Position numbers and translations under genes: made by a program. The notes below the pieces were generated by a model. That model worked only from the letters and a program-made list of their open reading frames with translations. It was not told the origin of the DNA and did not search any database. This document shows, piece after piece, positions 19,360 to 64,000 of a stretch of DNA of 64,000 nt. How positions within the stretch are numbered: position 1 is the stretch's first letter; each line of letters begins with the position of its first letter. Location of the stretch: NCBI GenBank assembly GCA_028703835.1, contig JAQVMB010000003.1, positions 5,493-69,492 on the forward strand, in the 5' to 3' direction. The stretch comes from Candidatus Peribacteraceae bacterium. Lineage in GTDB: Bacteria; Patescibacteriota; Gracilibacteria; Peribacterales; Peribacteraceae.

Positions 19360-19454
19360 CAAAGGAGGAGAATACGAATATTATAGCAGAAAATGAGCTT
19401 TTACTGAAGGATGAAGCGTTCTGCCAAAGGGGAATGGTAGCGGTAAAACGAGCA

Positions 19455-22819: not shown

Positions 22820-22823
22820 ACGT

Positions 22824-24503: not shown

Positions 24504-24617
24504 CCAGCCCACTGTACGGCCGGATATGCCGTCATACAATTGTCGCATGAGGGTTTCCGATTTTGCCCTGGCAGAAGAGCCGTTCGTGAACCCGATATTC
24601 ACGCGCCACTGTGAAGA

Positions 24618-25406
24618 TCACGCCCCCACGCCCTGCTTCCACATCGATTCGAACTGGTTGCGATAGAGTTCGATAAGTTCCGGTTGCCGGATGACGATGA
24701 CGCGCGGGTTCGTGTCGTCACAGATGAAGTGGCTGACGTGGGCGTCGGCGAAGGCGAGGTAATCGTCCGTCACGGGGATGTCATCGACGAGGCGGCTTGT
24801 GCGCAGTTCACGTGAATCCCTCTTTGCGAATGTTTCCGCTTCGGGCGTGCGGGGATTGAAGATGCGGCAGTAGATGCCGCGGTCCAGACGCTTGCGGCGG
24901 AACGCCAATTCTTCGGGCGCCTCGTCGGACAGACCCGCCACTCGCCAGTAGTTCGCCATGTTTCCGAGATGCAGGTACTCGTCGGTGCAGCAATCGGGCA
25001 GCTTCAGATATTCCTCCCGGAACGCTTCCACCCCTTCCCGGATCTCCACGGGTTCCGCTTCGTCGATCTTCGCTTCGTTGTCCAGGTACGGAAGCAGCGA
25101 GTCCAGACCGGCCAAGGCCAGCCGGAGCTTTCGCATCTTCCGCTGGTCTGCGTCCAGCTTCGTGATGATGGCGCGGAGCGTGAGGGGCGAGAAGACCGAT
25201 TGCTTCCGGTTCAGCTTCATCGGGGAAACGAGTCCGCGATCCTGAAGTCTCTTCATGGTGCGATAGGCCGTCATCACGTTGAGGCCGCTCGCGGCGATCA
25301 GTTCCGTCATCGATGCACGGCGCAGCTTCAGCAGCTGCAGGTACAGCGCAATTTCCTCCTCGCGGAGTCCCGCCAGCCGAAGAAGATCCTGGATGCGGCT
25401 ACGCAT
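24618..25406 (-). CDS. TrmB-family winged-helix transcriptional regulator
   Basis: 262 aa. The N-terminal LGLREEEIALYLQLLKLRRASMTELIAASGLNVMTAYRTMKRLQDRGLV fits a TrmB-type wHTH. It is embedded between paralogues D and C on the same strand. Confidence 0.7.
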   Translation of the reverse strand: MRSRIQDLLRLAGLREEEIALYLQLLKLRRASMTELIAASGLNVMTAYRTMKRLQDRGLVSPMKLNRKQSVFSPLTLRAIITKLDADQRKMRKLRLALAGLDSLLPYLDNEAKIDEAEPVEIREGVEAFREEYLKLPDCCTDEYLHLGNMANYWRVAGLSDEAPEELAFRRKRLDRGIYCRIFNPRTPEAETFAKRDSRELRTSRLVDDIPVTDDYLAFADAHVSHFICDDTNPRVIVIRQPELIELYRNQFESMWKQGVGA

Positions 25407-25433
25407 GGAAGAGGCAGTATAGCTCAGTTGGCT

Positions 25434-27122
25434 TCAATACACCTCTTTGAGATAGCATTCTTCGCAATACACGATTTCCGGCCGCTCCGGAGCATACGTC
25501 GTCCTCATCTCCTTCCCGCATTTCATGCAGGAGCGGATCCAGAGTTTGCGGGGGTTGCGCAGCGCCATGCGTCGTTTATGTCGCTCGTCAGGATGGAAAT
25601 GCGGAATCGGAAGCCGCATCTTCCGGTAGAACTCCAGCTCTTGCTTGATGACCTTGAAGAGGCGCCCCGAGACCGGGCAGCGGATCGCCGCGTGCAGGAT
25701 GTCATCCATGACGTCGTTGATACGGTCGGGAAGATTCTTCGCGTCCAGCGTTCGCGTCGCTTGCGGCGGCTCTTCCGCTTCCTCCCGCCACGACCATCCG
25801 CGCTTACGAGCTTCTTCTTTGGTGACCGGGAAGTACTCGGGCTCGTTCGCCACCGATTCGTTGTAAGCGTACGGAGAGGCGTCGACGGGGAAGAACTCGC
25901 CCCATTCGCCCGTCTTCCGCATGTGTTCGATGATCTTCGGTACGAGCGTTTCGTATTCTTCCCTCGTGTACCGCTTGTTGAGGATGCAGTACTTTCCGTT
26001 CCTGATGCCCACGCAGCCGAAACAATCGGATGAAGTGATGGCCAAGTCGCAATAGAGGAGATCATGGTTCACCGTGCTGTAGCTCCCGTGCGTGAAGAGG
26101 ACGTTCCTGCCGGTGATCGTGAGGCCTTCGTACGCAAGTTCCTGGAATGCGCCGTGGTCGACATCCATCGACGAGACCACTTGCTCGTCGAGACGGGTGC
26201 AGTGCTTCAAGTCCTGGCATTTGTCGCCGTCGAAGCAGGAGTGGCAACGGAGAGAGTGTTGGAGGTAGTCGCCGGTGCAATCTTCGCATTGGATGTTGTG
26301 TGAAGCCCGTCGCAGGGCTTGCGGGAGAAGGTTCTTGAACGTTTCACGATGTTTCTCGAATGCGGCATGCGAACCGGACAGGATATCCGCGACCGTACGC
26401 TCAAATGCTTCCTTGCCGACTTCTTCATTGAAGATGCAGTACTTTTTCCCGCGAAGATTGCTGCAGAACGCGATGTTCTGGCATTGCTGGCAGTCGATGC
26501 TGAAGAATGCGTCGGAGCAGTTCTTACAGTCCACGAGAGAGACGCAGTGATAGCAGAGAGTGGAGTCGAGGAGGTCATAGCTGCGCTCCGCGTCGCGGGA
26601 GAAGGCGCAGTCGGAGGAATCTTTCGAATGGTACGTGGCGTGACAGTACAGGTCGTTCTCATTGAATCCGCCGTCGATGCACATGTAGCAATTCTTGGAC
26701 TGCCAGACTTGGTTCACGTAGGGGCAGTTTTCATTGTTGATGACCGCGAGCGACAGGCGCGGGACGTTGTTCCGCAGTTCCCGGAATTGATCGAAGAAGG
26801 GCCGGTAGAAGTCGAACGGACGGCCGTAGGAGAACGGGTCCCACGCATCCGTGTACCACGCCTCCGTCTCGAAGACGGGAAAGGGCTTCTCCGGGGCGTA
26901 GGTCGAGATGATGGGTTTGTTCGTCAGGCCGCACTGTCGACGGTACAGGTTCCGTTCATTGCGAAATGACAGGCGACGTTGCGAGCGGCAATCCGGACAC
27001 AGCGTCGGAGGCGGGATCAACTTTTTCTTTCCGCTGAAGACGGGCGATACTTTCTCGTAGAACACGAGATCGTCGGGAGTGATGTCGAAGGAAGCCCGGC
27101 ATTGGCGACACGTTCTATGCAT
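25434..27122 (-). CDS. Cys-rich zinc-ribbon paralogue D
   Basis: ORF 25434..27221, read from the internal ATG at 27122 (MHRTCRQCRASFDITPDDLVFYEKVSPVF...). Ends ...CMKCGKEMRTTYAPERPEIVYCEECYLKEVY. Confidence 0.85.
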   Translation of the reverse strand: MHRTCRQCRASFDITPDDLVFYEKVSPVFSGKKKLIPPPTLCPDCRSQRRLSFRNERNLYRRQCGLTNKPIISTYAPEKPFPVFETEAWYTDAWDPFSYGRPFDFYRPFFDQFRELRNNVPRLSLAVINNENCPYVNQVWQSKNCYMCIDGGFNENDLYCHATYHSKDSSDCAFSRDAERSYDLLDSTLCYHCVSLVDCKNCSDAFFSIDCQQCQNIAFCSNLRGKKYCIFNEEVGKEAFERTVADILSGSHAAFEKHRETFKNLLPQALRRASHNIQCEDCTGDYLQHSLRCHSCFDGDKCQDLKHCTRLDEQVVSSMDVDHGAFQELAYEGLTITGRNVLFTHGSYSTVNHDLLYCDLAITSSDCFGCVGIRNGKYCILNKRYTREEYETLVPKIIEHMRKTGEWGEFFPVDASPYAYNESVANEPEYFPVTKEEARKRGWSWREEAEEPPQATRTLDAKNLPDRINDVMDDILHAAIRCPVSGRLFKVIKQELEFYRKMRLPIPHFHPDERHKRRMALRNPRKLWIRSCMKCGKEMRTTYAPERPEIVYCEECYLKEVY

Positions 27123-27229
27123 GGATGGAACGTTGGGAAGTGTTTGCAGATGCGGAAAATGCCGGATGCAAGTGAATATTCTCCCCATCCGCTGTCTGCT
27201 GCTTACTGTCGCCGCTATCATGACCGTCC

Positions 27230-27490
27230 ATGGCGAAGAAGCCCGCCCCCATCACGCTCCGTACCGTCCTGCGGCACATGCAGGAGATGAAGCAGGACCT
27301 CCTGCAGCATATGCAGGGGATGAAACGGGAACTTGTGACGAAGGTGGACGCCGTGGAGATGCGTTTGACGGAGCGTATCGACCGCGTCGAACGGAATCTG
27401 ACGATGCAGATCGACGGATTGGACAAGCGCCTCGATGACATCGAAGTGTTCCAACTCCCGAAGCTGAAGAAAGCGGTCGGCATGCGTTAA
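27230..27490 (+). CDS. small coiled-coil protein
   Basis: 86 aa. Heptad-rich MQEMKQDLLQHMQGMKRELVTKVDAVEMRLTERIDRVERNLTMQIDGLDKRLDDIE. Divergent from D. Its stop overlaps the stop of E (TTAA). Confidence 0.55.
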   Translation: MAKKPAPITLRTVLRHMQEMKQDLLQHMQGMKRELVTKVDAVEMRLTERIDRVERNLTMQIDGLDKRLDDIEVFQLPKLKKAVGMR

Positions 27491-29136
27491 TAGACTTCTT
27501 TAAGGTAGCACTCCTCGCACAGGGTCCTCCCGTCATATTCCTGGGGCCAGCTCGTCTGCGTCTCCTTCTTGCACTTGCCGCAGGCGACCGTCCGCAGTTC
27601 GCCGTTGAACGGAATGAGGCGGAAGTTTTCCTGCAGGCGGCGCATGTAATAGGTGTGCGGTAACGGCGCGCAAAGGTCTTTCGCGAACGCGATGTCCACG
27701 TCCGCGATCTGGAACGGCCGCTTTGCGACAGGATCCCAGAACACTTTCTTGGACAGATCCGTACCGGCATCATCGCTCCGGTCGGGGACCTGTGATGCGT
27801 CGATGGCGTCGGATATCCGTTCCGGCTTCTCCGTGCTCATGCGGAACCCGCGCTTCGTTCCTTCTTCCCGCGTGAGCGGCCAGTAGAAACCGGCAAGGCT
27901 TTCTTCATAGGGATTCGCCGCGAAGTGTCCGGGAAAGAATTGTCCGTACTCTCCGGTTCTCTTCATCGCCGCGATGATGTCCGCTTTGCGTTTCTCATAC
28001 TCCTCCGGTGTGTACGGTTTGTTGAAAATGTGATATTTCTTCCCGACCAACCCGCAGCAGCCGAAGCAGTGCTGGCACTGGAAGCAGTGTGCACTGTATT
28101 CCATTTCTTTGGATTGGACGACAAGATAGGAAAAGCGAACATTATAACACTTATCGAGTGCCGAAGAGCTGAAAAATACTAATTCATCTTCGTAAAAATT
28201 CGTATTGTCTAAACAATCTTTGGAATGAACACCTCCCCGGAAGCAGTTTATGCAATCCTCGGCTCCAGTCGATGTAAAATAACAATTTACGCAATTTCTG
28301 CATTCCTCGAGGTAGTTGCCAGTCGAATCTTCCGACTGGTCGAGCATTTGTGATCGATGCCAAGCGTTTGTCCGCAGCATATTACGGAAAGATATGTGAG
28401 TGGCTTCATAGATTTTCCACGACCGCAGATTTAGTTCACGAAGCTTCTGCAAATATTCCTCCTTCGAAAATTGGCGGTTGCCAATGCAATATTGCTTGTT
28501 TCGCAAATTGCAACATAGAACGCAATTGCTGCAATTTCGGCAATCATAGAGAAATGCGCTGTCGCTGCATTGCCAGCAGTTGAGTGCAAAAATAGTCTGA
28601 AAGCAGAAGTGACTGAAAGTGATATCAATACAACGCTGCGAGTCGAAGGAAAAAACTGCATATTGGGAATCCTTCACGCGTAAAACACGAAAACAATAAC
28701 GTACATCTTCGTCCTCCACTCCCGAATGACTTAAATAGCAATTCTTTGAGTACCACCAATCATCGGTGTATTCACAGTTTTCGTTTCCAGCGCCTAAATT
28801 ATGTGCGATGGGAGAATTTTGAAAAATCTCCCACATTTGAGGGAACAGCGGCTTCGTCAGATCCGCGTCCGCGGACGGAGGATTCGCATTCTTGATCCAC
28901 TCGTCCTTGTGCCACACGGGATACGGGCAGTCCTCGGAAAACACGGAGATGATCTGCTTGCCGGTCTTGTCGCACTTTCGTTTATGCAGCGTCCAATGCT
29001 GCCAAAATGCTCCAACGATTTGCCAGCGGACAATGGGGTGGAGGTCCGGCTCGCCGTCGATGCCGAGTTTCTTCCGCAAAGCTGTCTCCTGTTCACTGAC
29101 CGTGAACGTCCTGCCGGTGACGCGGCAAACGGGCAT
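27487..29136 (-). CDS. Cys-rich paralogue E (divergent; N-terminal zinc ligands lost; low-GC core)
   Basis: ORF 27487..29142, read from the ATG at 29136 (MPVCRVTGRTFTVSEQE...). Shares KYHIFNKPYTPEEYEKRKADIIAAMKRTGEYGQFFP and ...CGKCKKETQTSWPQEYDGRTLCEECYLKEVY with its sisters. Confidence 0.8.
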   Translation of the reverse strand: MPVCRVTGRTFTVSEQETALRKKLGIDGEPDLHPIVRWQIVGAFWQHWTLHKRKCDKTGKQIISVFSEDCPYPVWHKDEWIKNANPPSADADLTKPLFPQMWEIFQNSPIAHNLGAGNENCEYTDDWWYSKNCYLSHSGVEDEDVRYCFRVLRVKDSQYAVFSFDSQRCIDITFSHFCFQTIFALNCWQCSDSAFLYDCRNCSNCVLCCNLRNKQYCIGNRQFSKEEYLQKLRELNLRSWKIYEATHISFRNMLRTNAWHRSQMLDQSEDSTGNYLEECRNCVNCYFTSTGAEDCINCFRGGVHSKDCLDNTNFYEDELVFFSSSALDKCYNVRFSYLVVQSKEMEYSAHCFQCQHCFGCCGLVGKKYHIFNKPYTPEEYEKRKADIIAAMKRTGEYGQFFPGHFAANPYEESLAGFYWPLTREEGTKRGFRMSTEKPERISDAIDASQVPDRSDDAGTDLSKKVFWDPVAKRPFQIADVDIAFAKDLCAPLPHTYYMRRLQENFRLIPFNGELRTVACGKCKKETQTSWPQEYDGRTLCEECYLKEVY

Positions 29137-29172
29137 GGCCACAAGTGTACCAAACTTACCTTTCGTTCACTA

Positions 29173-30644: not shown

Positions 30645-32591
30645 ATGAACTCCAAAGCCCTCGAAACGATCAGTCATTTCCTGCTCTTCGCGCTCCTCGT
30701 CTTCGTCATCTTCTGGCGCGGGGGAAAGGGGATAGAGGCCACGTGGCTCCTCACCGGAGCGGCGGGAGTAGCGGTCCTCATTCAAGCATGGATCCGTCGG
30801 AAGGACGGAGGCGGGGCGGAGGTGCCTGCATTCGTCTGGACGGCGGGTGTGGCATTCTTCCTGTGGACGGTGCTCAGTTACGTTTTTTCCCGCACGCAGA
30901 ATTACGGTCTTGATGAAGTGCTGCGGGACGGGTCATTGCTCCTTCTCTTATTCTGGATCGTGCGGTGGCAGAAGAAAGAAGGAAGCCTCTCACCCTTCCT
31001 CGATCGATTCTTCCGCCTTCTCGTTTGGTTCACGGCGGCCGCTTCCATCGTTGGGTTGGCGGTCTACGTTCTGCAGCCGGTGAACCGTTTCGTGGGCACC
31101 TTCTTTTACGTCGGCGCCGTCACGGATTACTGGCCGAACGCCTGGGCTGAATTCGTCCTGCTCACGTGGCCGGTCATTCTCTGGTGGGCGCTGCGCGGGC
31201 GGGCCGGGAAGAACCGCGCACTGCGTTTCCTCCTCCTCGGCTTCGTAATCGGGTGCCTCTTCCTCAGTTATTCCCGCGGCGGTGTCATCGCCTTCGCCGG
31301 GCAGGTCGTCCTCCTTGCCCTTGTCCGGCTTCCCGCCGTTCGCGGCATGCGATGGAGGACTGCCTTGGGTGACGCCGCGCTTGTCGCCGTCATGGCCATT
31401 GGCGTCTTCTTCGGTGCGAATGCGCTGCGCGGACAGTTCCATGACGTCGAATCCATCGGGCGCAAAGTGACGTTTACGGCCGCGGAGGGCGCGTCGTCCC
31501 TGACGGAGCGCACGGCTTTCTACCGTCAGGCGTGGGAGCTCTCGCTCCGGCATCCGTTCGTCGGCTGGGGGCCGTACAGCTTCCGGTTCGTGCAGACCCG
31601 CCTGCAGGAAGATGTGACGGTGACATCCGACCATCCGCATAACGTGTTCCTGAAGGTCGCCGTGGAGCGCGGCTGGCCGGCGGCATTGCTGCTGGCACTC
31701 CTTGCCGCGGCGATTCTGCTTCCCGCGGCGCGGCGTTCTTTCGCGGAAAGAACCGCGGAGGGATCCGTCACGCCGTTCCTCCTCACGGCCGCAGCCGGGG
31801 TCCTGGCGCACAACCTCATCGACTTCAACCTGCAGTTCGTCGCCATCGCCTATCCCGGCGTCGTCCTCCTCGGGGCGTTGCTTCCCGCGTCCGCCCGCAC
31901 CGCATCACGCGGGAGTACCGCGCGGCGCCGGATGGAGATCGCGCTTGCGGTTTTCCTCCTGCTGGCAGCTTTCGTCGAAGGAGTGTTCCTTGTCACTTCC
32001 TCCCTCGGGAGGCATGCGGAGGTTGCGGGCAGGACTGATGCCGCCGTGTCATGGTATGCGAGGTCGCAACGGCAGTTCTTTGACCGGGACCTGCGTCTCA
32101 GCCAAGCGCACATATTGCTGGAACGCCAAAACTTCACGGGCGCGGAACAGGCGATGCTCACGTACGTTCGCCGCAATCCGGAGGATGCGCGCGGATGGAA
32201 GCTCTTGGGTGAAATCCATACGACATTGTTCCGCTATCCCGAAGCGCGCAGGGATTATGAACAGGCCTTCGTCCTGAACCGTTACAACGATCCGGGCGCA
32301 GCGGTCGATTACCTGATGGCCCTCGCACGGACGGGCGACGGGACGGACGTTGAGGCCGCCCGAGAAGAAACCGTTCATCTCGTGCGTGCCTATGCGGATG
32401 CCATCATACGCAACACCCATTTCATCGCGATATCGCCGCGGGTGAAAGATGTCGCGGAACTGGTGCGCATCGCGTCGATCCTCTACCCGCAGCACAAGGA
32501 AGAATTGGAGCGTTTGGGCGGACAGGGATTGATACAAGCCGAAAGGACACGGGAGCGGTTCGAGAACTCACAAGCCGGCTACCTTTGGTGA
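30645..32591 (+). CDS. O-antigen ligase-like (Wzy_C) polytopic membrane protein with C-terminal TPR-like repeats
   Basis: 648 aa with many TM segments. LFLSYSRGGVIAFAG and HPHNVFLKVAVERGW motifs are present. The C-terminal ~200 aa are helical-repeat-like. Confidence 0.7.
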   Translation: MNSKALETISHFLLFALLVFVIFWRGGKGIEATWLLTGAAGVAVLIQAWIRRKDGGGAEVPAFVWTAGVAFFLWTVLSYVFSRTQNYGLDEVLRDGSLLLLLFWIVRWQKKEGSLSPFLDRFFRLLVWFTAAASIVGLAVYVLQPVNRFVGTFFYVGAVTDYWPNAWAEFVLLTWPVILWWALRGRAGKNRALRFLLLGFVIGCLFLSYSRGGVIAFAGQVVLLALVRLPAVRGMRWRTALGDAALVAVMAIGVFFGANALRGQFHDVESIGRKVTFTAAEGASSLTERTAFYRQAWELSLRHPFVGWGPYSFRFVQTRLQEDVTVTSDHPHNVFLKVAVERGWPAALLLALLAAAILLPAARRSFAERTAEGSVTPFLLTAAAGVLAHNLIDFNLQFVAIAYPGVVLLGALLPASARTASRGSTARRRMEIALAVFLLLAAFVEGVFLVTSSLGRHAEVAGRTDAAVSWYARSQRQFFDRDLRLSQAHILLERQNFTGAEQAMLTYVRRNPEDARGWKLLGEIHTTLFRYPEARRDYEQAFVLNRYNDPGAAVDYLMALARTGDGTDVEAAREETVHLVRAYADAIIRNTHFIAISPRVKDVAELVRIASILYPQHKEELERLGGQGLIQAERTRERFENSQAGYLW

Positions 32592-36051: not shown

Positions 36052-38127
36052 ATGGACACCCAGCCCGCCCCGCTTCCGAATCCGGACGTTTCCGTGCCGG
36101 CATCCGTCGACGGACTCACGTCAGCCCCGCAGCCTGCCCCCGTCAGCGCGCCGCCTCCGGTGGCACCGACGGCAGTCAGGGCGCAGAAGCGGGTATTGGT
36201 CGGCATCGGATTTCTTTTCTACGCACTGTATGCGGGTTGGTGCCTCTGGATCATGGCTCAGTTGCCCACCATTGACATCCAATTGTCACGTTTGCAACAG
36301 CCCGCACTGGCCAGCGTCGCCATCGGGGGCGTCTTCTTCATCGGGCTTGCGTTGATCCTGTTGCAACGGGTGGCGCGCGCGGACGTGGGCATGGGTACGC
36401 GGCAGCAGGGGTTGATACGTGTGCTGCTGGCCGTGGTTCCCGGGATTGCGCTCAGTGCGGCCGTTCCTTTCGTCATCCTGCAGGCGCCGTCGTTTCCCAT
36501 GGATACCGATCCCGCTGACGCCGCTTCTTTTGTTGCTCCGCTCTCCATCACGCTCAATGTCGCAAGAAGCGCCGCGTTTCTCCAGGCACAGGGGAAGAAG
36601 CCGTCCAAATACATGTGGTACACGGATGCGAGCGGGAAGGCCACGGAGACGACGGTGGCGCCGGAGACGACGATGGTCTTTCAGCGTGCGGGCATCTATC
36701 CCATAAGCGTTCGCCTCGTGTATGCGGACGGCACGTATCAGAAAATCTCAAAGCAGATCATCATCGGCGATGAGGTATTCGCGGTATCGCCGTTGTACCC
36801 CATCGTCGACCAGCCCGCCCGTTTCAGCATCGCGCAGTTGATCCCGGACGTGAAGCAGCTCAAGCAGGCGCAATGGGATTTTGACGGAGACGGGACGGCG
36901 GAAGAAACGACGAAAGGGACGGATGCCGTCCATACGTACTACGCGACGGGAGACGTGACGGTGACCGTTATCGTCGATCTCGCCAACCAGACACAGAAGA
37001 CATATTCACGCATGGTCACGGTTCAGGATCCTCCGTCGTTGCCGTTTCCGGTAACGCTCAAGACGGAACCCAAGACATTGCTCGGGCCGTCGCCGTTCGG
37101 CGTGCTCTTCACGTTGGAAACGGAGGAGTCTCTCAAGGAAATCACGTGGTCGTTCGGTGACGGCAAACAGGAGAGAGGCGCGGATCTCACACGCATCGGA
37201 CACTCCTTCGACAAACCCGGCATCTATTCCGTCATGGCGCGTGCGCGTTCCGGCAGCGGGAAATTGGCGGAGCTCTCCGCGCTCGTTCGTGTGACGGACA
37301 CGTTGCAGATCGCGGATCTGACATATGAGGGGAAGCCGGAAGTTCGGAACAATATCGTCACGGGCGAAGTGCCGCTCACTGTTCAGCTCACGCCCAAGAC
37401 GGCGCTTCCGCTCATCCAGTTTTCCTGGGAAGCACCGGATGAAATGGGCGCGGAGATCACGGGAAACACCGTTGCGGCCGTCCTCCGGCGCGAAGGGGCG
37501 TATACCTTGACGCTCATCGCGCAGGGTCCCGACGGGAACACCATGCGCCAACCGATCAAGATCAACGTTCGCCCGCCCGCCGCGGAACCGGTCATCGACA
37601 TGCGTCCGGAGGGAGGAACGGCGCCCCTGCGCGTGACGTTCGACGCGTCACGCACGTACGTTCCGCCCAACGAAGTGATCGCGGGTTTCCGTTGGCAATT
37701 CGGCGACGAAGCGCAAGGTGCGACGCCCGAACTGGGCGGTTCGAGGCTGGAACATACGTACGAAAAAGCGGGTGAATACAAGGTGAAACTGACCCTGGTG
37801 ACGACGAAAGGGAAGGAATATTCCGCCGAGCGGACGCTCATCATCCGGAAACCCGTCCTCTCCGCATGCGCGACGGCAAGCCGCGTGCAATTGAGCGCCG
37901 GCGGAGGCGTGCGTTTTGACGCATCCTGCACGACGGGCAAGCCCACCCAGTATCTTTGGGATGTCCGTTCGGAAGCCAGGCCGGGCACGACGTTGGCGCA
38001 GAGCGAAGAGAAGACCTACGATCACGTGTTCGCGGAACCGGGCGAGTACCGCGTGACGCTGACGGTGCATGACGGTGCGGGCAGCCAGGATGCCAAGACC
38101 TTATCCATTTCCGTTTCCGCGCCATGA
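36052..38127 (+). CDS. membrane protein with multiple PKD-like domains
   Basis: N-terminal TM helices followed by repeats such as WDFDGDGTAEETTKGTDAVHTYYATGDVTVTVIV, WSFGDGKQE...HSFDKPGIYSV and WQFGDEAQ...HTYEKAGEYKVKLTLV. Confidence 0.75.
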   Translation: MDTQPAPLPNPDVSVPASVDGLTSAPQPAPVSAPPPVAPTAVRAQKRVLVGIGFLFYALYAGWCLWIMAQLPTIDIQLSRLQQPALASVAIGGVFFIGLALILLQRVARADVGMGTRQQGLIRVLLAVVPGIALSAAVPFVILQAPSFPMDTDPADAASFVAPLSITLNVARSAAFLQAQGKKPSKYMWYTDASGKATETTVAPETTMVFQRAGIYPISVRLVYADGTYQKISKQIIIGDEVFAVSPLYPIVDQPARFSIAQLIPDVKQLKQAQWDFDGDGTAEETTKGTDAVHTYYATGDVTVTVIVDLANQTQKTYSRMVTVQDPPSLPFPVTLKTEPKTLLGPSPFGVLFTLETEESLKEITWSFGDGKQERGADLTRIGHSFDKPGIYSVMARARSGSGKLAELSALVRVTDTLQIADLTYEGKPEVRNNIVTGEVPLTVQLTPKTALPLIQFSWEAPDEMGAEITGNTVAAVLRREGAYTLTLIAQGPDGNTMRQPIKINVRPPAAEPVIDMRPEGGTAPLRVTFDASRTYVPPNEVIAGFRWQFGDEAQGATPELGGSRLEHTYEKAGEYKVKLTLVTTKGKEYSAERTLIIRKPVLSACATASRVQLSAGGGVRFDASCTTGKPTQYLWDVRSEARPGTTLAQSEEKTYDHVFAEPGEYRVTLTVHDGAGSQDAKTLSISVSAP

Positions 38128-51322: not shown

Positions 51323-52204
51323 TCAGTTTGATGTCGGTGATGCGTCCAGTGCCAGCATCGCCGCACCGCGCGTCGCGGCATCGTCCAGCATTCTGATGGC
51401 GAGGGAGGGGAGGGGAGTGCCGGGCAACGTCCAACGTGCGAGTTCTTTCCCTATGGCAGGCAAGAACGGACGCAGCGCCCTGCCCGTGCTGCCGCCGAAG
51501 ACGATGATCGAGGGGTTCAGGAAATGCGTCAGGTTCGTGCAGAGCCAAGCGGTTTCGAGCACGACGTGCGGGTGGAGGAACGCGCATGCCTCACCCGCGA
51601 GCAGGTCATCGGGTTTCTCGGCCGCCGCACAACGTTTCCTCATGGCGGTTCCGGAGAGGAATTGCTCCGTCTCGCCGCGCTTTTCGTCCGTTTCGTACGG
51701 AGGGAGACCCGGGACAAGGAGCGTATGGCCGATTTCCCCGGCGCAGCCGTCCGCGCCCGCGTAGAGCTTGCCGTCGATGACGATGCCGCCGCCCACGCCC
51801 GTCCCCATCGTGACGCCCACGACGACGCGCAAACCTTTTCCCGCACCCGCGCGCGCTTCCCCGAGCGCGAAACACTGAGAATCGTTCCCGACAGCGACTT
51901 TCATGCCCAATCGTTCCGAAAGGAGGTCCCGCAGGGGGAACCCGTCGCCGCCTTCGATGTTGGGAATGCGGAGAATGGACCCGTTCCCTTGCGAAACGAG
52001 GCCGGGTACGCCGATGCCGCACGCGACCGTATCTGGGCGTTTCCAAGCGGACGCGTGGCGAATGACGTCGTCCACGACGGCTGCGAACCCTCTCTCGCGC
52101 TCCGTCGGCACCCGTTCCGACCGCAAGAGTTCCAGCGTCGACGCATCGTACAAGCCGTAGAGTACTTTCGTGCCGCCGATATCGATACCGAGGACGGTCT
52201 CCAT
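51323..52204 (-). CDS. ROK-family sugar kinase (glucokinase-like)
   Basis: ORF 51323..52291, read from the ATG at 52204. METVLGIDIGGTK..., GVPG, GCAGEIGH. Confidence 0.8.
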   Translation of the reverse strand: METVLGIDIGGTKVLYGLYDASTLELLRSERVPTERERGFAAVVDDVIRHASAWKRPDTVACGIGVPGLVSQGNGSILRIPNIEGGDGFPLRDLLSERLGMKVAVGNDSQCFALGEARAGAGKGLRVVVGVTMGTGVGGGIVIDGKLYAGADGCAGEIGHTLLVPGLPPYETDEKRGETEQFLSGTAMRKRCAAAEKPDDLLAGEACAFLHPHVVLETAWLCTNLTHFLNPSIIVFGGSTGRALRPFLPAIGKELARWTLPGTPLPSLAIRMLDDAATRGAAMLALDASPTSN

Positions 52205-52327
52205 GGCGCCACTGTACCACAGCGTGCCGCCCATCCTCACGACGAATTGCTGGTTCGATGGACGGGACTTTTGGTATACTGCATTCCTCACCGATTTCCA
52301 GAGGTTGAGTACGGTTCTCTCCCGAGC

Positions 52328-53060: not shown

Positions 53061-53126
53061 TCCGTCGGTCCAATCAAATACACATCGTTGTAAGCCGGGT
53101 TCGCGGCAGTCGTCTACTACTCGTAG

Positions 53127-54488
53127 ATGAAAGACGGGCCGACCATCCTGAGGGCAGCGGGGACATCAGTCTTCCTTTCGCCGGAAGAAAAGGAGGCTCT
53201 GTGGCAACCAATCCTCAGGCTCACGATAGCGGAGAGATCGCAACCGATGCCTTGGCTTGCATTGCAAAGACTCTCCCGATTCAGTCTTGCGGCGACGGGC
53301 TTGTTCGCAGGCGTCGTCCTGTTGTTTGCGCTGGCACATGCCGCCTCCGACCGTGCCATGCCGGGAGACATGCTGTACGCCGTCAAACTGCGCATCCTGG
53401 AGCCGATCGTCGGTGCCATCCGTTTGACGCCCATGGCGAAAGCGCAGTGGGAGGGGGAACGCGCGCTGCGCCGTCTCGAAGAAGCGGAAAAATTGGCTGC
53501 GGTCGCCGCCCTCGACGGAATGAAGCAGGAAGTGCTGATGCGCAACATGACGGAACACCTGACGCAGGCGGAACGGCATGCCGGCGACCTATCTGCGCAA
53601 GGCGATCCCGAAGGCGCGACCAGCCTCCTCGATGACTTGGAAACATCGCTGGGCGCCCATGCGGCGGTACTGCGGGTCATACGACAGATCCAACCGCAGG
53701 AATCGGGTGAGTATACGGCGGTAGGGGGCTTCCTTGACTCCGTGCAGGAAGCCGAGGAAGAAATCTCCGTTTCGCGGGAACGTCACGAACGGACCGTTGC
53801 GGAGACGCAAGGATCGGATGCCGCCTTGGCGTCCGCAAAAATCGAACAAACGGAGCGTCGGTTGAATGAAGCACTCGCCCTGTTCCGCGAGTCGGACGGT
53901 CTTCCCCACGCCGCGATGAGGGAGGCGGCGGCGAAAATCTCTTTCGCCGACAGGATGCTGTCGTATGCACGGACCTACGAACGAAACGGCAAAGAAGAGG
54001 ATGCTCTTGCCTTGGCACGCACGGCATACAAGTCCGTGGAGGAAGCGCACGTGCTGTTGCGCATGCAAGCGGGCGGCCTGACGGCATCGGGCACCGTGTC
54101 ATTACCCGGGGGCGAAGATGATGCAATGACCGCTTCAGGTGCCAGCGTGTCGCCGTCGGCAATCTCGGCTGAGCGGGTGACGGAAAGCATCAGGATGACG
54201 GACGAAGGGTTGCAGGATGCGCGAGCGGTTTGGATGCGGTACGGCGGCACGGCGGATCCGATGGAAACCGATGAGGCGCGGCGCCTGTTCACGGAGTCCG
54301 AAGACGCCCTGCAATTGGCCCGCGGCCTTTTGGATCGGGGAGAAACCGACGAGGCCTATCGCCAGGTGCAACGGGCGCAGCAGACACTCTGGCACGTCGG
54401 ACAAATGCAATATCCGCCGTCATCTGCCACAGAAGACAATTCGCCTTACGGCGAAAACGGCCCCGATCCATCCGACGGAAACGGCTGA
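53127..54488 (+). CDS. DUF5667-domain membrane protein (sigma-factor partner, anti-sigma-like)
   Basis: One TM helix, then PGDMLYAVKLRILEPI, which is typical of the DUF5667 N-terminus. Long helical Ala/Glu-rich remainder. Confidence 0.65.
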   Translation: MKDGPTILRAAGTSVFLSPEEKEALWQPILRLTIAERSQPMPWLALQRLSRFSLAATGLFAGVVLLFALAHAASDRAMPGDMLYAVKLRILEPIVGAIRLTPMAKAQWEGERALRRLEEAEKLAAVAALDGMKQEVLMRNMTEHLTQAERHAGDLSAQGDPEGATSLLDDLETSLGAHAAVLRVIRQIQPQESGEYTAVGGFLDSVQEAEEEISVSRERHERTVAETQGSDAALASAKIEQTERRLNEALALFRESDGLPHAAMREAAAKISFADRMLSYARTYERNGKEEDALALARTAYKSVEEAHVLLRMQAGGLTASGTVSLPGGEDDAMTASGASVSPSAISAERVTESIRMTDEGLQDARAVWMRYGGTADPMETDEARRLFTESEDALQLARGLLDRGETDEAYRQVQRAQQTLWHVGQMQYPPSSATEDNSPYGENGPDPSDGNG

Positions 54489-54686
54489 ATGGTCATGGGG
54501 AAAGCGGGCGAACAGCTTTTCCCGTGATTATGGCATGTCCGATGTAAGAAGCCGCGAGAGCGCGCGTCTACATCATCAGTTTCTCATGTCACACGCGTTG
54601 CTCCGAAGGGCAAACACCATTCCATCTTTATTTCTTTCCTTCATACAAATCTATGTCTATACATAGAAAAAGGCCAAATACACGTT

Positions 54687-54703
54687 CCGTACGGACCGTA
54701 CGG
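54687..54703. promoter_or_regulatory. tandem 8-bp palindromes CCGTACGG-A-CCGTACGG in leader of repeat-protein gene
   Basis: Seen directly. Lies 31 nt upstream of the ATG at 54734. Function unknown. Confidence 0.2.
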
Positions 54704-54733
54704 CGATTGGGCCAGCGAAATCCGGACGCGTCG

Positions 54734-57700
54734 ATGCACCCCATGACCAGGACGGTCGCATCGGTCAGCGCCATCGCTGTCCTGTTCGCATCGGTGGCGT
54801 CGGGCATGACGTACGCCGCAGGCGATTCGTTCGCGGGCGTGGGCAGCAGCCTGATGCAGCTTGCATGGTCGCCTTTCTGGGCGTATCAGGATGCGACGGA
54901 CGCGTCGAACGCGGACACGGACGTCGATGCGTTGGTCAATGCCGGCACATCGAACGAGACGCTCCTCCTGCAGGACGGAGACGGCCTGCTCCCGGGGTTT
55001 TCGTTCCAGCATGCCGATGTCTTCAACGCCGCGGATACGGACGTCCTTTCTCCCGTCAATGCGGGGGCGTGGAACGAGTCGTTGATCCTCCAAACGGGAG
55101 GCGGCTTCCAGACGGCGGCTGCGGCGGCTGACGCCGCGACGGACGTCCAGTCGCTCATCAACGCCGGTTCGTCCAACGACACGGGCGTCATCCAGAGCGG
55201 CGGCGGCGTACAAGACGCAACGGTGGTCAATACGGCCTCCACCGGAGTGGATTCGCAGATCAATGCGGGTTCCTCGAACACCATCGGCATTTTCCAGGGT
55301 AACTCCCCGTACGTCGGAGGAGTGTCCTGGGGTCCTTCCGTCGGCGGCAGCACGCAGACGTCGGGCGGATGCGGAACGAATTGCAGTTCCTCGTCCGTGA
55401 GCGGAGGTTGCGGATCTAACTGCAGCTCATCGTCCAGTCTGCCGTGTACATCTGACTGCGGCTCTTCTTCTTCGAGCGTAAGCTCCTATTCGTCAAGCAA
55501 CGGCTGCGGTTACGGCTGCAGCTCGTCATCCAGCAGCCCGTGTACTTCCGGCTGCGGCGGCGTCCTCGGGAATCAGGCTGCGGAAATCATCGCTTCTGCA
55601 AACACAAACGTTGACTCCACCAACAACGCCGGCAGCCAGAACAACACGACGGTCGCCCAGAACGGAACGGGCGGCTGGGATTGGCTGGGTGGTTGCGGTT
55701 CCTCCGGTTGTCCAAGCGGCTGCCAGTACGGCGGCTACGGATGCCAGCAGCCATGTGATGACGGTTGCGGAGGCGGCACGCCTGCCGTCCAGAACGCGGA
55801 CGTGACGAGCGTGGCCCTCTCGGGAATCGGATCGATGATCAACGCGGGTTCCGAGAATAATCTGGGCATCTTCCAGCTCGGCGATGCATGGAACACCTTC
55901 CAGACGGCGCTCCTTGCCGCGTCGGCAAACACCAATGTCAATTCCACGAACAATTCCGGTGCCAGCAATTCCACGGGCATCTTCCAGAACGCTGCCGGAT
56001 GGGGAGTGTCCCAGAACGCAGACGCGACGAATGTCGCTCTGTCGGGGATTGACTCTCTCATCAACGCAGGCTCCCAAAACAACCTTGGCATCTTCCAGGT
56101 GGGAGGTGGAGTAGTGGGTGGAGGATCTGCGGAGCAGTACGCAGCGATTGGCGCGTCAGCGGATACGTCTGTTGATTCCATGAACAATTCAACGGCTACG
56201 AACGATCTTGGTATTTTCCAGAACGCCGTTGGCGGCGGATTGGGCGTTTCCCAGGATGCCGATGCGACGAACGTCGCCGCTTCCGGTATCGACTCCGACA
56301 TCAATGCGGGTTCCCAAAATAACATCGGCCTCGCGCAAATCGGAGGGCCGGTATTGGACGGCACCGCTTCGCAGTATGCCGAAGTGGTCGCTCCGGCCAT
56401 GACGGTCGTGAACTCCACGAACAACTCCGGCGCAGACAACAACCTCGGCATCTTCCAGAATGCCGTCGGGTCCGACCCGTGCGGCGACGGTTGCGCTGAC
56501 GGTGTCGCCCTCCAAGATGCGGATGCGACGAACGTCGCCGCTTCCGGTATCGACTCGGACATCAATGCGGGATCGGTCAATAACATCGGGCTCCTGCAGG
56601 TGGGAGGCAACGTCAATAACGGTGCCGCTTCACAATATGCGGGTATTTACGCGCCCGCAACGACGGTCGTGGACTCCACGAACAACTCGGGGGCAAATAA
56701 CGACCTCGGCATCTTCCAGAACAGCGTGAACGGTGACGGGACGTCCGCTCAGGACGCAGACGCCACGAACGTCGCGCTCTCCGGCATCGACTCGGACATC
56801 AACGCCGGTTCGGTCAATAACATCGGCGTGAACCAGGTCGGCGGCAACGTCAACCACGGCGCTGCGGCGCAGTACATCGAAGTGAATGCGCCCGCAACGA
56901 CAGTCGTGGACTCCACGAACAACTCAGGTGCGGAGAATGACCTCGGCATCTTCCAGAACAGCGTCGGCGGAGAATGCGGGGACGGATGCGCCGACGGCGT
57001 CGCAGTCCAGGATGCGGATGCGACGAACGTCGCGGAATCCGGCATCGACTCCGACATCAACGCCGGAGCGGTGAACAATATCGGCGTGAACCAGGTCGGC
57101 GGGAACGTCGATCACGGCGCCATGGCCCAGTACGTTGAAATCAACGCACCGTCCACGACGGTCGTCGATTCCACGAACAATTCCAACGCATCCAATGACG
57201 CGGGCATCGTCCAGAACCAGGGAGGCACGACGGTTTACACCGCCGGCTTCCAGGGCGCTTCCATGGGCAATACCGCCGGTTCGGGCATCGACTCGGACAT
57301 CAACGCCGGTTCCCAGAACAACATCGGCGTCAACCAGCTGGGCGGCGACGTGAACCACGGCGCCATGGCCCAGTACGTTGAAATCAACGCACCGTCCACG
57401 ACGACCGTCGATTCCACGAACAATTCCAACGCATCCAATGACGCGGGCATCGTCCAGAACGCGGAAGGCGGTGCCGATTGTGACGGCGACGGTTGCGCCG
57501 ACGGCATCGTTCTTCAGGATGCCACGAACTGCAACGATGCAGAGTCCGCGGTGGACTCGGACATCAACGCGGGTTCGGAGAACAACATCGGCATCGTGCA
57601 GGCGGGCGGTTCCGTCTCGGACGGCGGTGTAGCCAATCAGGAGGTCGTGGTGACGACTCCTGCGACGACAGCGGTAGATTCCACGATCAACGCGGGCGCG

Positions 57701-58024
57701 TCCAATGACTCCGGCATCGTCCAGAACGCCGAAGGTAGGGAGGGATGCGACCCCTGCGAAGCTGACGGCGGCGCGGTGCAACAAGCTTCCGCCGGCAACA
57801 GCGCGGACACGGATGTCGATTCCGACATCAACGCCGGTTCGGAAAACAACATCGGCGTGGTGCAGGAAGGCGGTGACAATCAGTCCGCCGAGATCTGCAC
57901 GACGGCGGACACGACCGTCGATTCCACCATCAACGCGGGTTCCTCCAACAACACGGGCATCGTCCAGAACGGCGGCGGCGCCCCGGTCATGCCGGTCTTC
58001 ACCATGCCGGCTTTCAGTTTCTGA
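54734..58024 (+). CDS. large secreted curlin-like Q/N-ladder repeat protein with Cys-rich inserts
   Basis: ORF 54653..58024, read from the ATG at 54734, which gives signal peptide MHPMTRTVASVSAIAVLFASVASGMTYA. About 23 copies of the motif D-S-x-[IN]-N-[AS]-G-x-x-N-x-x-G-[IV]-x-Q, for example SDINAGSQNNIGVNQ and STNNSGANNDLGIFQ. Confidence 0.8.
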   Translation: MHPMTRTVASVSAIAVLFASVASGMTYAAGDSFAGVGSSLMQLAWSPFWAYQDATDASNADTDVDALVNAGTSNETLLLQDGDGLLPGFSFQHADVFNAADTDVLSPVNAGAWNESLILQTGGGFQTAAAAADAATDVQSLINAGSSNDTGVIQSGGGVQDATVVNTASTGVDSQINAGSSNTIGIFQGNSPYVGGVSWGPSVGGSTQTSGGCGTNCSSSSVSGGCGSNCSSSSSLPCTSDCGSSSSSVSSYSSSNGCGYGCSSSSSSPCTSGCGGVLGNQAAEIIASANTNVDSTNNAGSQNNTTVAQNGTGGWDWLGGCGSSGCPSGCQYGGYGCQQPCDDGCGGGTPAVQNADVTSVALSGIGSMINAGSENNLGIFQLGDAWNTFQTALLAASANTNVNSTNNSGASNSTGIFQNAAGWGVSQNADATNVALSGIDSLINAGSQNNLGIFQVGGGVVGGGSAEQYAAIGASADTSVDSMNNSTATNDLGIFQNAVGGGLGVSQDADATNVAASGIDSDINAGSQNNIGLAQIGGPVLDGTASQYAEVVAPAMTVVNSTNNSGADNNLGIFQNAVGSDPCGDGCADGVALQDADATNVAASGIDSDINAGSVNNIGLLQVGGNVNNGAASQYAGIYAPATTVVDSTNNSGANNDLGIFQNSVNGDGTSAQDADATNVALSGIDSDINAGSVNNIGVNQVGGNVNHGAAAQYIEVNAPATTVVDSTNNSGAENDLGIFQNSVGGECGDGCADGVAVQDADATNVAESGIDSDINAGAVNNIGVNQVGGNVDHGAMAQYVEINAPSTTVVDSTNNSNASNDAGIVQNQGGTTVYTAGFQGASMGNTAGSGIDSDINAGSQNNIGVNQLGGDVNHGAMAQYVEINAPSTTTVDSTNNSNASNDAGIVQNAEGGADCDGDGCADGIVLQDATNCNDAESAVDSDINAGSENNIGIVQAGGSVSDGGVANQEVVVTTPATTAVDSTINAGASNDSGIVQNAEGREGCDPCEADGGAVQQASAGNSADTDVDSDINAGSENNIGVVQEGGDNQSAEICTTADTTVDSTINAGSSNNTGIVQNGGGAPVMPVFTMPAFSF

Positions 58025-58046
58025 CGGAGAATATGGAATGACGGTT

Positions 58047-58081
58047 GCGGGGGAAGGGTCAGCCCTTCCCCCGCGTTTTTC
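58047..58081. terminator. bidirectional intrinsic terminator
   Basis: gcgggggaaggg-tcag-cccttcccccgc followed by a T run. Lies between the convergent repeat-protein gene and mscL. Confidence 0.7.
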
Positions 58082-58568
58082 ATGCGGCCAGCAATTGCGA
58101 CGTGCACTGCGGACAGCGCGTCGCTTTCATCGCCACGTTCGTGAAGCAGAAAGGACACTCTTTCGTGTCGGGCGGCGGCGGTTCCAGCCCCTTGCGTTTC
58201 CAGCGGTTGATTTGTCGCACCACGAAGAACGTCACGACGGCGACAATGGTAAAATCCAGCAGTGTATTGAGGAAAAGGCCGTAATTTACGGTTGCCGCGC
58301 CCGCGGCCTTTGCCTGCGCCACGGACTCATATTCATCGCCGGACAAATTGATGAACAGATTGGCAAAATCCATCCTCCCGACGATGACGCCGATGGGCGG
58401 CATGATGATGTCATTGACGAGAGACGTGACGATCTTGTTGAAACCGCCGCCGATCATGATGCCGACGGCAAGGTCGATGACATTGCCGCGAACCGCGAAT
58501 TCACGGAATTCCCGCAGGATCTTGCTCTCTTTCACGCGATGGATGTGTTCGGTCGCTTTCTGCAGCAT
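58080..58568 (-). CDS. mscL: large-conductance mechanosensitive channel MscL with C-terminal CxxC...CxxC tail
   Basis: Internal ATG (58568) of ORF 58080..59117. [40 protein letters not shown]. Ends [27 protein letters not shown]. Confidence 0.88.
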
Positions 58569-63310: not shown

Positions 63311-64000
63311 TCAGCGTTTGGCGCGGGCGTCCGCCGCGAGCAATTCCGCATTCGTTTTCACGCTCACGGCGAGAGAAGCCACGGAAGGAGACAGTTCCGT
63401 CGCCTTGTCCGCGATGAACCAACTGTCCTTCGACAATCCGATCGCCTCTTCGTACCGTTTCTCGGTCAGAGCGCGGTAGCCCCGCACGAGCGCCCGATAG
63501 GCTTCCGTCAGCTTCAGTGCGCCCTTCACCAGGGATTCATCCGGCATGGACGTGAGTGCCCCGCGCGCAGCAAGGAGCGCGCGCGCCGAAGCATATTCCG
63601 CCGTCCGGACATCTTTGGCGTTCAAGGCCCGAACCGTCGCGAGCGCATCTTCCTCCACCGATTCCAGCAGTGCTTGGACACGCTCACCGTCCTTGTATTG
63701 CAGCAAACGGTACAGGAACAGCGCGACGTCCCCCCTGGTGAGGTCACGTTCCGGCCCCAGATACCCCGTTTTCCCCACCTGCGTGACGGACATGGCTATG
63801 GCAAGGCGGCAAAAAGGATAATGCCACGCGGACACGTCACTCTCGTCCGGAGCGAGCGGAAGACGTATCTCCCCGTACGCGTCCTTGTCCATGCCGTGCG
63901 CGAGGAGCAGCATTTTGAGGAATTCCGCTTTCTTCACAATACGACCCGGGTGGAATTGCTGCGTTTCGGATGCATCGTCGATGATGCGTGCCTCGACCGC
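63311..64000 (-). CDS. hypothetical protein, partial (N-terminus beyond window end; SLH-like segment at edge)
   Basis: ORF 63311..63937 stays open upstream to the window end (own translation ...AVEARIIDDASETQQFHPGRIVKKAEFLKMLLLAHG). The FHPGRIVKKAEFLKML stretch is SLH-like. Confidence 0.5.
   Translation of the reverse strand, partial: AVEARIIDDASETQQFHPGRIVKKAEFLKMLLLAHGMDKDAYGEIRLPLAPDESDVSAWHYPFCRLAIAMSVTQVGKTGYLGPERDLTRGDVALFLYRLLQYKDGERVQALLESVEEDALATVRALNAKDVRTAEYASARALLAARGALTSMPDESLVKGALKLTEAYRALVRGYRALTEKRYEEAIGLSKDSWFIADKATELSPSVASLAVSVKTNAELLAADARAKR

Follow-up and report, generated by a model that had tools for sequence, protein, structure and literature searches.

The gene, its product and the repeat unit

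The subject of this report is a gene for a giant secreted repeat protein in a stretch of 64,000 nucleotides (nt), hereafter the window, from a Candidatus Peribacteraceae bacterium (assembly GCA_028703835.1, contig JAQVMB010000003.1). Its product of 1123 amino acids (aa) carries, behind a signal peptide, 23 copies of a unit of 29 residues with invariant Gln and Asn. The gene follows genes for an extracytoplasmic function (ECF)-type sigma factor and a DUF5667 protein, has a promoter-like motif of its own and faces the convergent mscL gene. The features of the locus are summarized in Table 1.

The first-pass annotation had assigned the protein to the open reading frame (ORF) 54734-58024 on the forward strand. 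This ORF of 1096 aa exists, but it is nested in a longer one that starts at 54653, and the Met at 54734 is internal. The longer ORF adds an N-terminal extension of 27 residues, MSIHRKRPNTRSVRTVRRLGQRNPDAS, with a basic n-region. Because the basic extension is also kept in the orthologues P0001 and P0002/L007, and P0002/L007 does not have the internal Met at the position of the shorter start, 54653 appears likelier to be the true start. The signal peptide that had been noted earlier was borne out by a conserved cleavage motif, which is SGMTYAAG in the window (predicted cleavage between TYA and AG) and invariant as SGM(S/T)YAAG in 4 proteins. The hydrophobic end of the protein, GGGAPVMPVFTMPAFSF, was also found as described, and the orthologues end in equivalent aromatic tails (GGGFMFSFPF, GGGLPFVFPF and MAPVFPTGLFVH). 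The tail has neither the LPXTG motif nor the basic end of a sortase substrate, and no Pfam match to SLH domains was found in the repeat protein. A spurious ORF was excluded because the orthologues are conserved and syntenic.

The pattern Q-x16-N-x4-N-x5-Q occurs 23 times in the protein, whereas 5000 shuffles gave it 0.03 times on average and never more than twice. A hidden Markov model (HMM) profile of the unit also gave 23 domains (full-sequence E = 8.8e-291) and found no match outside the repeat protein in the six-frame translation of the window, so that the hand count of 23 in the first-pass annotation was exact. The 16-residue motif on which that count was based is real, but it is only the C-terminal half of the core, which is Q-x-A-x-h-x-[N/A]-x-A-x-[T/S]-x-[V/I]-D-S-x-[I/N]-N-[A/S]-G-x-x-N-x-x-G-[I/V]-x-Q. 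Q1, N18, N23 and Q29 are invariant in 23/23 copies, in keeping with the earlier description of a protein made almost entirely of one repeat with Gln/Asn positions, and S15 and A9 are conserved in 22 and 21 copies, respectively. The two subtypes proposed earlier do alternate: the A type is QDADATNVAxSGIDSDINAGSxNNIGVNQ, the B type is QYxEVNAPATTVVDSTNNSGAxNDLGIFQ, and the spacing from A to A is 74-88 aa. The repeat period including the linker is 34-47 residues.

Two spacers, absent from the first-pass annotation, break the array into 4 + 1 + 18 units, and the array ends 17 residues short of the C-terminus. In the regular central array the linker GGNVNHGAxA is conserved after A units; the linkers after B units are variable, some with Cys-pair mini-loops. 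The shortest linkers have 4 residues (GGGF, GGGV, GGDN), and therefore Q29 of one unit adjoins Q1 of the next. The protein has 26 Cys residues in all, 22 of which stand in eleven close pairs (Cx2C to Cx4C), all in spacers or linkers. At the DNA level the program TRF found a 237-nt period with only 77% matches, and the units are accordingly old and diverged, neither a recent expansion nor an assembly artefact.

The composition (G 14.9%, A 13.0%, S 12.0%, N 11.0%, D 7.7% and Q 5.4%) agrees with the earlier remark that the protein is rich in these residues and has no Lys/Arg-rich region. In fact, the mature part has no Lys at all, and its 106 Asp and Glu residues stand against a single Lys or Arg. 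We also noted 24 N-x-S/T sequons, several of them at or beside the invariant N23 (N-E-T, N-D-T, N-S-T, N-N-T). Comparable sequons at N23/N24 (e.g. NNT, NDT) recur across the units of the wider family, which could reflect either glycosylation or merely beta-strand propensity.

Table 1. Repeat-protein locus and associated elements, in window coordinates
Feature	Position	Strand	Remarks
Third copy of the TGTAAG-N16-CGTC motif	14796-14821	+	ATG of a signal-peptide protein gene follows about 10 nt downstream
ECF-type sigma factor gene, 172 aa	52328-52846	+	Two genes upstream of the repeat gene; Sigma70_r2 1.8e-10, Sigma70_r4_2 5.5e-16
TGTAAG-N16-CGTC motif before the DUF5667 gene	53089-53115	+	Pattern match; same relative position in L001 (8603-8628)
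DUF5667 protein gene	53127-54488	+	One hydrophobic segment near the N-terminus, probably membrane-spanning; DUF5667 26.9 bits, just below the 27-bit cut-off
Promoter-like motif TGTAAGA-N15-CGTCT	54543-54569	+	About 85 nt upstream of the ATG at 54653
Leader element CAGTTTCTCAT	54577-54587	+	Between promoter motif and start codon
Repeat-protein coding sequence	54653-58024	+	1123 aa plus stop; from the ORF list
Signal peptide	54653-54817	+	Basic n-region, hydrophobic core, predicted cleavage between TYA and AG; read from the sequence
Repeat units 1-4	54887-55300	+
Ser/Cys-rich spacer, 91 aa	55301-55573	+	Five CxxxC pairs
Repeat unit 5	55574-55663	+
Gly/Cys-rich spacer, 42 aa	55664-55789	+	6 Cys
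Repeat units 6-23	55790-57970	+	Alternating A/B
C-terminal tail	57971-58021	+	Gly3 plus hydrophobic/aromatic residues
Intrinsic-terminator-like hairpin	58046-58085	+	13-bp stem with 10 G-C pairs, T-run; 22 nt past the stop; common to convergent mscL

Relatives of the repeat protein and the comparison with curli

A word-indexed search of 5.8 billion proteins gave three homologues with 48-51% BLASTP identity, two of them named (Candidatus Peribacteraceae and Patescibacteria), and all three match the window protein throughout in their architecture, with a signal peptide, a Cys/Ser spacer and an aromatic C-terminal tail. The 1123-aa product itself was not on record in an exact look-up. With a profile of 70 units, an exhaustive HMMER search of 1.84 billion representatives gave 42 proteins at E <= 1e-3, and all carriers of the repeat that could be placed taxonomically were from Peribacteria or Patescibacteria. 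A strict DNA pattern for unit positions 9-29, searched in one genome for each of 185,579 species, gave 5 loci, all from Candidatus Peribacteria or Peregrinibacteria; this hand-written, degenerate pattern is blind to the VNN-type units of distant relatives, so that it does not delimit the family taxonomically.

The repeat protein in the window has the features that define the family (at least two units matching the unit profile, an N-terminal signal peptide before them and an array at or near the C-terminus). The relatives fall into two classes. Members of the first are small secreted proteins of about 130-300 aa, in which the signal peptide is followed by a region that is acidic or rich in Cys, His or aromatic residues and then by 2-5 units that stop 0-2 residues from the C-terminus. 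The second comprises large surface proteins, which combine Ser-rich linkers with DUF11, SpaA/prealbumin-like and 'acidic double-disulfide' repeats; their 2-5 units lie near the C-terminus and are mostly followed by a short hydrophobic/aromatic tail (...RLWP, ...KRWF, ...RKLFP, ...ARFF). Forms of different sizes occur together: P0001 (21 units) and P0005 (4 units) are both on one 1.38-Mb contig, L003 (another orthologue, 23 units) and L004 (9 units) are from the same metagenome-assembled genome, and P0020 (5 DUF11 domains plus 3 units) shares an assembly with L006, a tandem pair of 4-unit genes. The slot of a small paralogue is kept in two genomes, in the order HSP70, GAPDH, AP endonuclease, CCA enzyme, small repeat protein and, further on, malic enzyme.

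Two of these paralogous loci have particular features. The genes of the L006 pair (550-1404 and 1408-2634, forward strand) are adjacent and encode 4 units each; the first product ends exactly at the last repeat Gln, and the second has a Ser/Gly-rich stalk followed by an LPDIAPGG-hydrophobic-KKR end resembling a sortase sorting signal, so that this secreted-plus-anchored pair recalls csgA/csgB. The 9-unit paralogue of L004 (633-2357, reverse strand) has a basic insert rich in Lys, Pro, His and Cys (…HHVKPVKVPKPHYDMPHGCQNDCKPEYKKPEV…) between units 7 and 8, in sharp contrast to the Lys-free giant protein.

We also compiled position statistics from 205 distinct units of the family, averaging the top-residue frequency of each position over odd and even positions. 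The mean was about 0.73 at odd positions versus about 0.36 at even positions. The odd positions from 1 to 29 are all conserved (Q, A, V, N/A, A, T, V, S, I, A, S, N, T/I/V, V/I, Q), while the even positions are variable, polar or acidic, except for the invariant N18 and for N/D14 and G20, which are conserved in part. Written as a consensus, the family unit reads Q-N-A-x-V-x-[N/A]-x-A-x-T-x-V-[N/D]-S-x-I-N-A-G-S-x-N-x-[T/I/V]-x-[V/I]-x-Q. This alternation is the mark of a long beta element with one face buried.

The first-pass annotation had called the protein curlin-like, and as a statement of homology this did not survive. In Pfam and NCBIfam scans of the whole protein, five fragments and ten relatives, no model covered the repeat, and the whole protein matched no family even at E <= 10. 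On the fragments (142-169 residues) the best match of Curlin_rpt (PF07012) was 10.6 bits (E = 0.56), on one N-terminal unit, compared with a gathering cut-off of 20.7 bits; Escherichia coli CsgA, entered as a positive control, gave 95.8 bits (E = 1.4e-27) over five stretches. An alignment of the 23-unit profile with CsgA by hhalign had a probability of 1.4%. Searches of PDB chain sequences, a library expected to hold the CsgA and FapC fibril chains 8enq and 9u4u, found no meaningful match to the protein or to a 74-unit family profile; the sole hit was a thioredoxin (E = 3.2). Curlin repeats have 19-23 residues and follow S-x5-Q-x-G-x-G-N-x-A-x3-Q, and by eye only a spacing of [Q/N]-x-G-x2-N-x5-Q is common to them and to our unit (N18-x-G20-x2-N23-x5-Q29). 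The earlier statement that the window has no csg secretion genes held, in that no csgB, csgE, csgF or csgG was found among the Pfam assignments in three syntenic loci or in the 20 large window ORFs tested, the small window ORFs not all having been scanned.

Some resemblance to CsgA and CsgB nevertheless remains. Like these, the protein is secreted and consists nearly entirely of tandem repeats rich in Gln, Asn, Gly, Ser and Ala, with invariant Gln at strand ends, invariant Asn after a Gly-containing turn and a predicted architecture of stacked beta rungs; the small paralogues are of CsgA size and have a signal peptide, a variable N-terminal region and repeats up to the C-terminus. Unlike them, it has 23 units per chain rather than 5, a core of 29 residues and a period of 34-47 rather than about 22, an extremely acidic and Lys-free composition, Cys-pair loops and Ser-rich spacers. 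Its lineage is generally regarded as without an outer membrane, and an ECF sigma factor presumably takes the place of CsgD. The protein would thus be curli-like in predicted architecture only, and not a homologue of CsgA.

Repeats of other known surface proteins were also considered. No match to HemolysinCabind of the RTX type or to other beta-roll families was found in Pfam at E <= 10, and no 9-residue (GGxGxDxUx) periodicity was seen. The Hep_Hag repeats of trimeric autotransporters, the repeats of filamentous haemagglutinins, the NxGxGNxG repeats of PPE-MPTR proteins and the GGA(I/L/V)/FxxN repeats of chlamydial Pmp proteins were rejected, having no Pfam match and a motif that differs on reading. 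The literature that we found on the Candidate Phyla Radiation (CPR) with curli, amyloid or beta-solenoid contains no description of this repeat family.

The promoter motif and the neighbouring genes

The motif TGTAAG-N16-CGTC has three matches in the window (14796-14821, 53090-53115 and 54544-54569), versus 0.02 expected with the strict pattern and 0.23 with the relaxed one. It precedes the giant gene in all five genomes compared (the window, L001, L002, L003 and L007). In an alignment of the five upstream regions, which are otherwise divergent, TGTAAGA, GCGTC and TTCTC are invariant blocks; the last is the core of the leader element CAGTTTCTCAT, which is identical in L001 and L002 and could be the transcription-start region or a regulatory site. 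The motif also lies about 75-85 nt upstream of small paralogues of 3-4 units in L008/L009 and L010, and in L001 it stands before the DUF5667 gene and before a secreted cupredoxin-like gene. The product of the latter (L001 20311-21041) has a Ser-rich linker. Behind the third copy in the window, an ORF at about 14828-15469 encodes a signal-peptide protein of about 210 aa (MMHGISV...TAFAAAVVVTLVSVIGHAEA...), which probably belongs to the same ECF regulon. In L004 the motif is on the strand opposite the 9-unit gene, and upstream of the L006 genes no motif was found; not all paralogues are in the putative regulon.

In ECF promoters the -35 element ends in AA(C/G) and the -10 element is CGTC, as in the SigX/SigW-type promoters of Bacillus subtilis (TGTAAC/TGAAAC-N16-17-CGxx). 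The two elements found here, their spacing, their conservation and the nearby sigma factor gene are those of an ECF-type promoter, and it would presumably be read by that sigma factor. The arrangement also resembles the ECF regulons of monoderm bacteria in the 16-nt spacing, in that the sigma factor gene is followed by a membrane-protein gene bearing the same motif, and in the extracytoplasmic nature of the targets. It differs in the -35 element, which ends in AAG where the canonical form has AAC, and in the sigma factor gene itself, which has a TATACT box upstream (window 52200-52300; L001 7985-8000), apparently of a sigma-70-like promoter, and no TGTAAG-N16-CGTC. The upstream regions of the sigma factor gene and the repeat gene have no 7- or 8-mer in common. 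Since the motif precedes the DUF5667 gene and not the sigma factor gene, the latter may not be autoregulated, unlike most ECF sigma factors. We infer that the DUF5667 protein, whose gene is also in L001 but absent on the P0002 contig, is a putative anti-sigma partner.

The same arrangement, with a sigma factor gene ahead of the giant gene, is seen in L001 and on the P0002 contig, where the two genes are direct neighbours. The neighbourhood of the repeat gene is syntenic with Peribacteraceae GCA_041661065.1, in the order transaldolase, 6PGD, M23 peptidase, ROK kinase, ECF sigma factor, DUF5667 protein, repeat protein, mscL (convergent), PDDEXK protein, RsmH, pyruvate kinase and SLH protein. With its own ECF-type promoter and terminator, the repeat gene appears to be a self-contained transcription unit, and it and the small paralogues probably belong to the regulon of the neighbouring sigma factor. 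The small paralogues with the same promoter motif are therefore probably co-expressed with the giant gene.

Other genes in the window also concern the cell surface. An 855-aa protein (529-3096, reverse strand) has two SLH domains and a full Beta_propel match (E = 8e-164), with the look of an S-layer or wall-anchored protein. By its position beside the pyruvate kinase gene, the ORF 63311-63937 (reverse strand) would be the counterpart of the SLH protein seen in the syntenic loci. SLH anchoring is evidently in use for other surface proteins of the cell, but the repeat protein does not rely on it. Further envelope or surface functions are encoded at 36052-38127 (forward strand; 691 aa, four PKD domains) and at 30645-32591 (forward strand), where TPR repeats are fused to a Wzy_C (O-antigen ligase-like) membrane protein. 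A VirD4/TrwB-like type IV coupling ATPase (17113-19362, reverse strand; T4SS-DNA_transf, DUF87) is followed on the same strand by five consecutive ORFs of about 550-595 aa (19455-21239, 21131-22819, 22824-24602, 25434-27221 and 27487-29142), which have no Pfam match except for one sub-threshold zinc-finger hit. Because the G+C content of this region (17113-29142, reverse strand) is 0.53-0.59, below that of the flanks, and because of the coupling ATPase and the ORFs without a Pfam match, it may be a mobile or secretion-related island.

Predicted fold, alternative readings and significance

The full-length AlphaFold model was made with an alignment of four sequences, and its strands coincide with the units. 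We also modelled a fragment of six units (residues 594-839) with an 18-row alignment in which segments of the window protein and of three orthologues are shifted against each other by repeats. Its best model had a predicted local distance difference test score (pLDDT) of 82.1 and a predicted template modelling score of 0.65, and it is all-beta with the strands on the unit cores. The 29-residue cores form a continuous DSSP strand, broken only at the Pro of the B units, and the conserved GGNVNHG linker contains a short strand. Two topologies fit these observations. The unit may be a strand-arc-strand rung as in curlin, which would give 23 rungs and a length of about 11 nm, or it may be one long strand with the A and B units as two sheets, which would give about 11-12 rungs, a length of about 5.5 nm and a width of 9 nm. 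The rows of the alignment were offset by whole A+B periods, which could steer AlphaFold toward the latter.

A Foldseek search of the PDB with the best fragment model gave almost only parallel beta-solenoids and beta-helices. The Pseudomonas amyloid FapC (9u4u) ranked 1st (E = 3.7e-4), a CsgA fibril 5th and Pontibacter CsgA 9th, and the remaining hits were mostly SufD, pectate lyases, tapirins and ice-binding proteins. FapC repeats are rich in Gln, Asn, Ala, Thr and Ser. Like the repeat protein, FapC is secreted and built from imperfect repeats, and its rungs are longer than those of curli, but its TM-scores of 0.08-0.12 mean no real superposition, there is no sequence similarity, and Fap requires the FapF outer-membrane channel and the fapA-F operon, to which no linked genes are comparable here. 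The hits other than the two amyloids are largely monomeric beta-helix or solenoid proteins (pectate-lyase-like folds, tapirins, ice-binding proteins, SufD-type), in which Asn ladders and capped ends are typical and which include many adhesins and surface proteins. The likeness to them is limited by Foldseek E-values of at least 0.09 and TM-scores of at most 0.09, and no Pfam beta-helix match was found. A stacked-beta fold is thus moderately supported by the models, and the Gln/Asn ladders follow from it by inference.

Taken together, we think it rather probable that the gene encodes a Sec-exported, highly acidic and Lys-free surface protein of a bacterium of the class Peribacteria (Peregrinibacteria, CPR), transcribed from an ECF-type promoter, in which a new repeat stacks into a flat, Gln/Asn-laddered beta-solenoid. 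The units would stack in register as parallel beta rungs of a two-sheet solenoid, with the conserved face buried and the invariant Gln and Asn forming ladders along the axis. The resulting rod or plate would have a length of about 5-11 nm, according to whether a rung consists of one unit or of an A+B pair, and would in effect be a covalently pre-assembled cross-beta stack of the curli/Fap type. Ser/Cys-rich spacers would interrupt this rod, short Cys-pair loops, probably disulfide-bonded, would decorate it, and the aromatic N- and C-terminal segments may serve as caps or anchors. Transcription would start at TGTAAG-N16-CGTC, presumably by the sigma factor encoded two genes upstream, and run to the strong terminator. 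The protein probably serves these very small cells, which are probably attached to hosts, as a structural rod on the surface, a scaffold or an adhesin. The lineage has been described as possessing peptidoglycan, a sortase and genes for an S-layer (PMC4736985).

Several observations weigh against this interpretation. The full-length model is unconfident (pLDDT 32.7), the other four of the five fragment models have pLDDT values of 37-49, and a hand-built, repeat-shifted alignment can itself suggest in-register stacking to AlphaFold. The Foldseek TM-scores are all at most 0.13, and therefore no solved structure truly superposes. Of the beta-solenoid in the first-pass annotation, then, the all-beta, stacked prediction with solenoid neighbours stands, although it comes from one model of five and with these TM-scores. 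Mutual information over the 205 units, with average product correction, showed no anti-diagonal signal and no clear contact register. Tight stacking would be disfavoured at a net charge of about -105 unless counter-ions are present, and in L003 the sigma factor gene is not adjacent to the repeat gene.

The solenoid reading has to be weighed against three others. It is possible, though on balance unlikely, that the family is an extracellular functional amyloid of at least two components, in which the giant is a cell-attached template or nucleator and co-regulated small secreted paralogues of 2-5 units, their arrays left uncapped at the last Gln, polymerise on it or on one another by rung stacking, in analogy to CsgB and CsgA but with Sec only. 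This overlaps with the solenoid rod and differs in needing intermolecular stacking. In its favour, most members are small and secreted with 2-4 units at the extreme C-terminus: in 26 of 44 tabulated proteins no more than 2 residues follow the last unit, several of the short ones being fragments, and two rungs would be unlikely to be stable alone, for which HET-s offers a comparison. The giant and small forms encoded in one genome (P0001, P0005), their common promoter motif, the small paralogue in its conserved syntenic slot, the L006 tandem pair and FapC as the top Foldseek hit point the same way. On the other hand, the aromatic end segments of the giant resemble solenoid caps and would as such prevent growth from end to end, polymerisation is unfavourable at so extreme a negative charge, no linked chaperone or nucleator genes were found at the loci examined, and some paralogues have C-terminal anchors or tails of their own. 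A bolder version, which we regard as improbable, is a cross-beta assembly specific to Peribacteria, Sec-only and ECF-controlled, without a channel of the CsgG or FapF type; the 23-rung giant would be its cell-bound template, on which 2-5-rung subunits and large adhesins (DUF11, SpaA, acidic-disulfide) with 2-5 C-terminal units dock or extend, and the repeat would be a general attachment tag of amyloid type.

We give similarly little weight to an acidic repeat that is largely disordered or folds only on Ca2+ or another metal, as in RTX beta-rolls and Ca-dependent antifreeze or adhesin solenoids, with flat faces rich in Asp, Asn and Thr that bind cations, minerals, ice or polysaccharide instead of a Gln/Asn-ladder rod. 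The acidic excess of the mature protein, the Asp/Asn-rich even positions, the conserved GG(N/D)V(N/D)HG linkers, the low AlphaFold confidence of the full-length and four of the five fragment models, the ice-binding proteins among the weak Foldseek hits and the relatives that join the unit to acidic double-disulfide repeats are all in its favour. However, neither a beta-roll Pfam match nor the RTX nonapeptide periodicity was found in the searches described above, the strict odd/even conservation over 29 residues suggests a buried face and a defined fold, and one model reached a pLDDT of 82 without ions. That the protein is a genuine divergent member of the curli family (CsgA/CsgB, Curlin_rpt) is very improbable. 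The common sub-motif spacing, the weak Curlin_rpt match on one N-terminal unit and the CsgA structures among the Foldseek hits can be cited for it; but this match falls far below both the cut-off and the CsgA control, the low hhalign probability and the PDB chain search likewise speak against homology, a unit of 29 residues plus linker exceeds the curlin length, csgB, csgE, csgF and csgG were not found at the window or syntenic loci within the scope given above, and the host lineage is generally regarded as having no outer membrane. For practical purposes, the sequence comparisons refute homology to curli.

The repeat constitutes a very rare family, catalogued in neither Pfam nor NCBIfam and found so far only in one CPR lineage. 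The CPR/Patescibacteria are very small, host-attached cells of which hardly any surface structures are known. The repeat re-creates the sequence logic of curli, with beta rungs punctuated by Gln and Asn, in the absence of detectable homology or an outer-membrane secretion apparatus. Through the conserved ECF promoter, the regulon of a CPR sigma factor becomes concrete and open to test. Should the fold and any intermolecular assembly prove true, a cross-beta surface material with Gln/Asn ladders would have been invented independently here, with a natural series of 2 to 23 rungs in which to study how solenoids avoid or exploit amyloid growth, and a Sec-only assembly system, if it exists, would give the CPR its first described functional-amyloid machinery.

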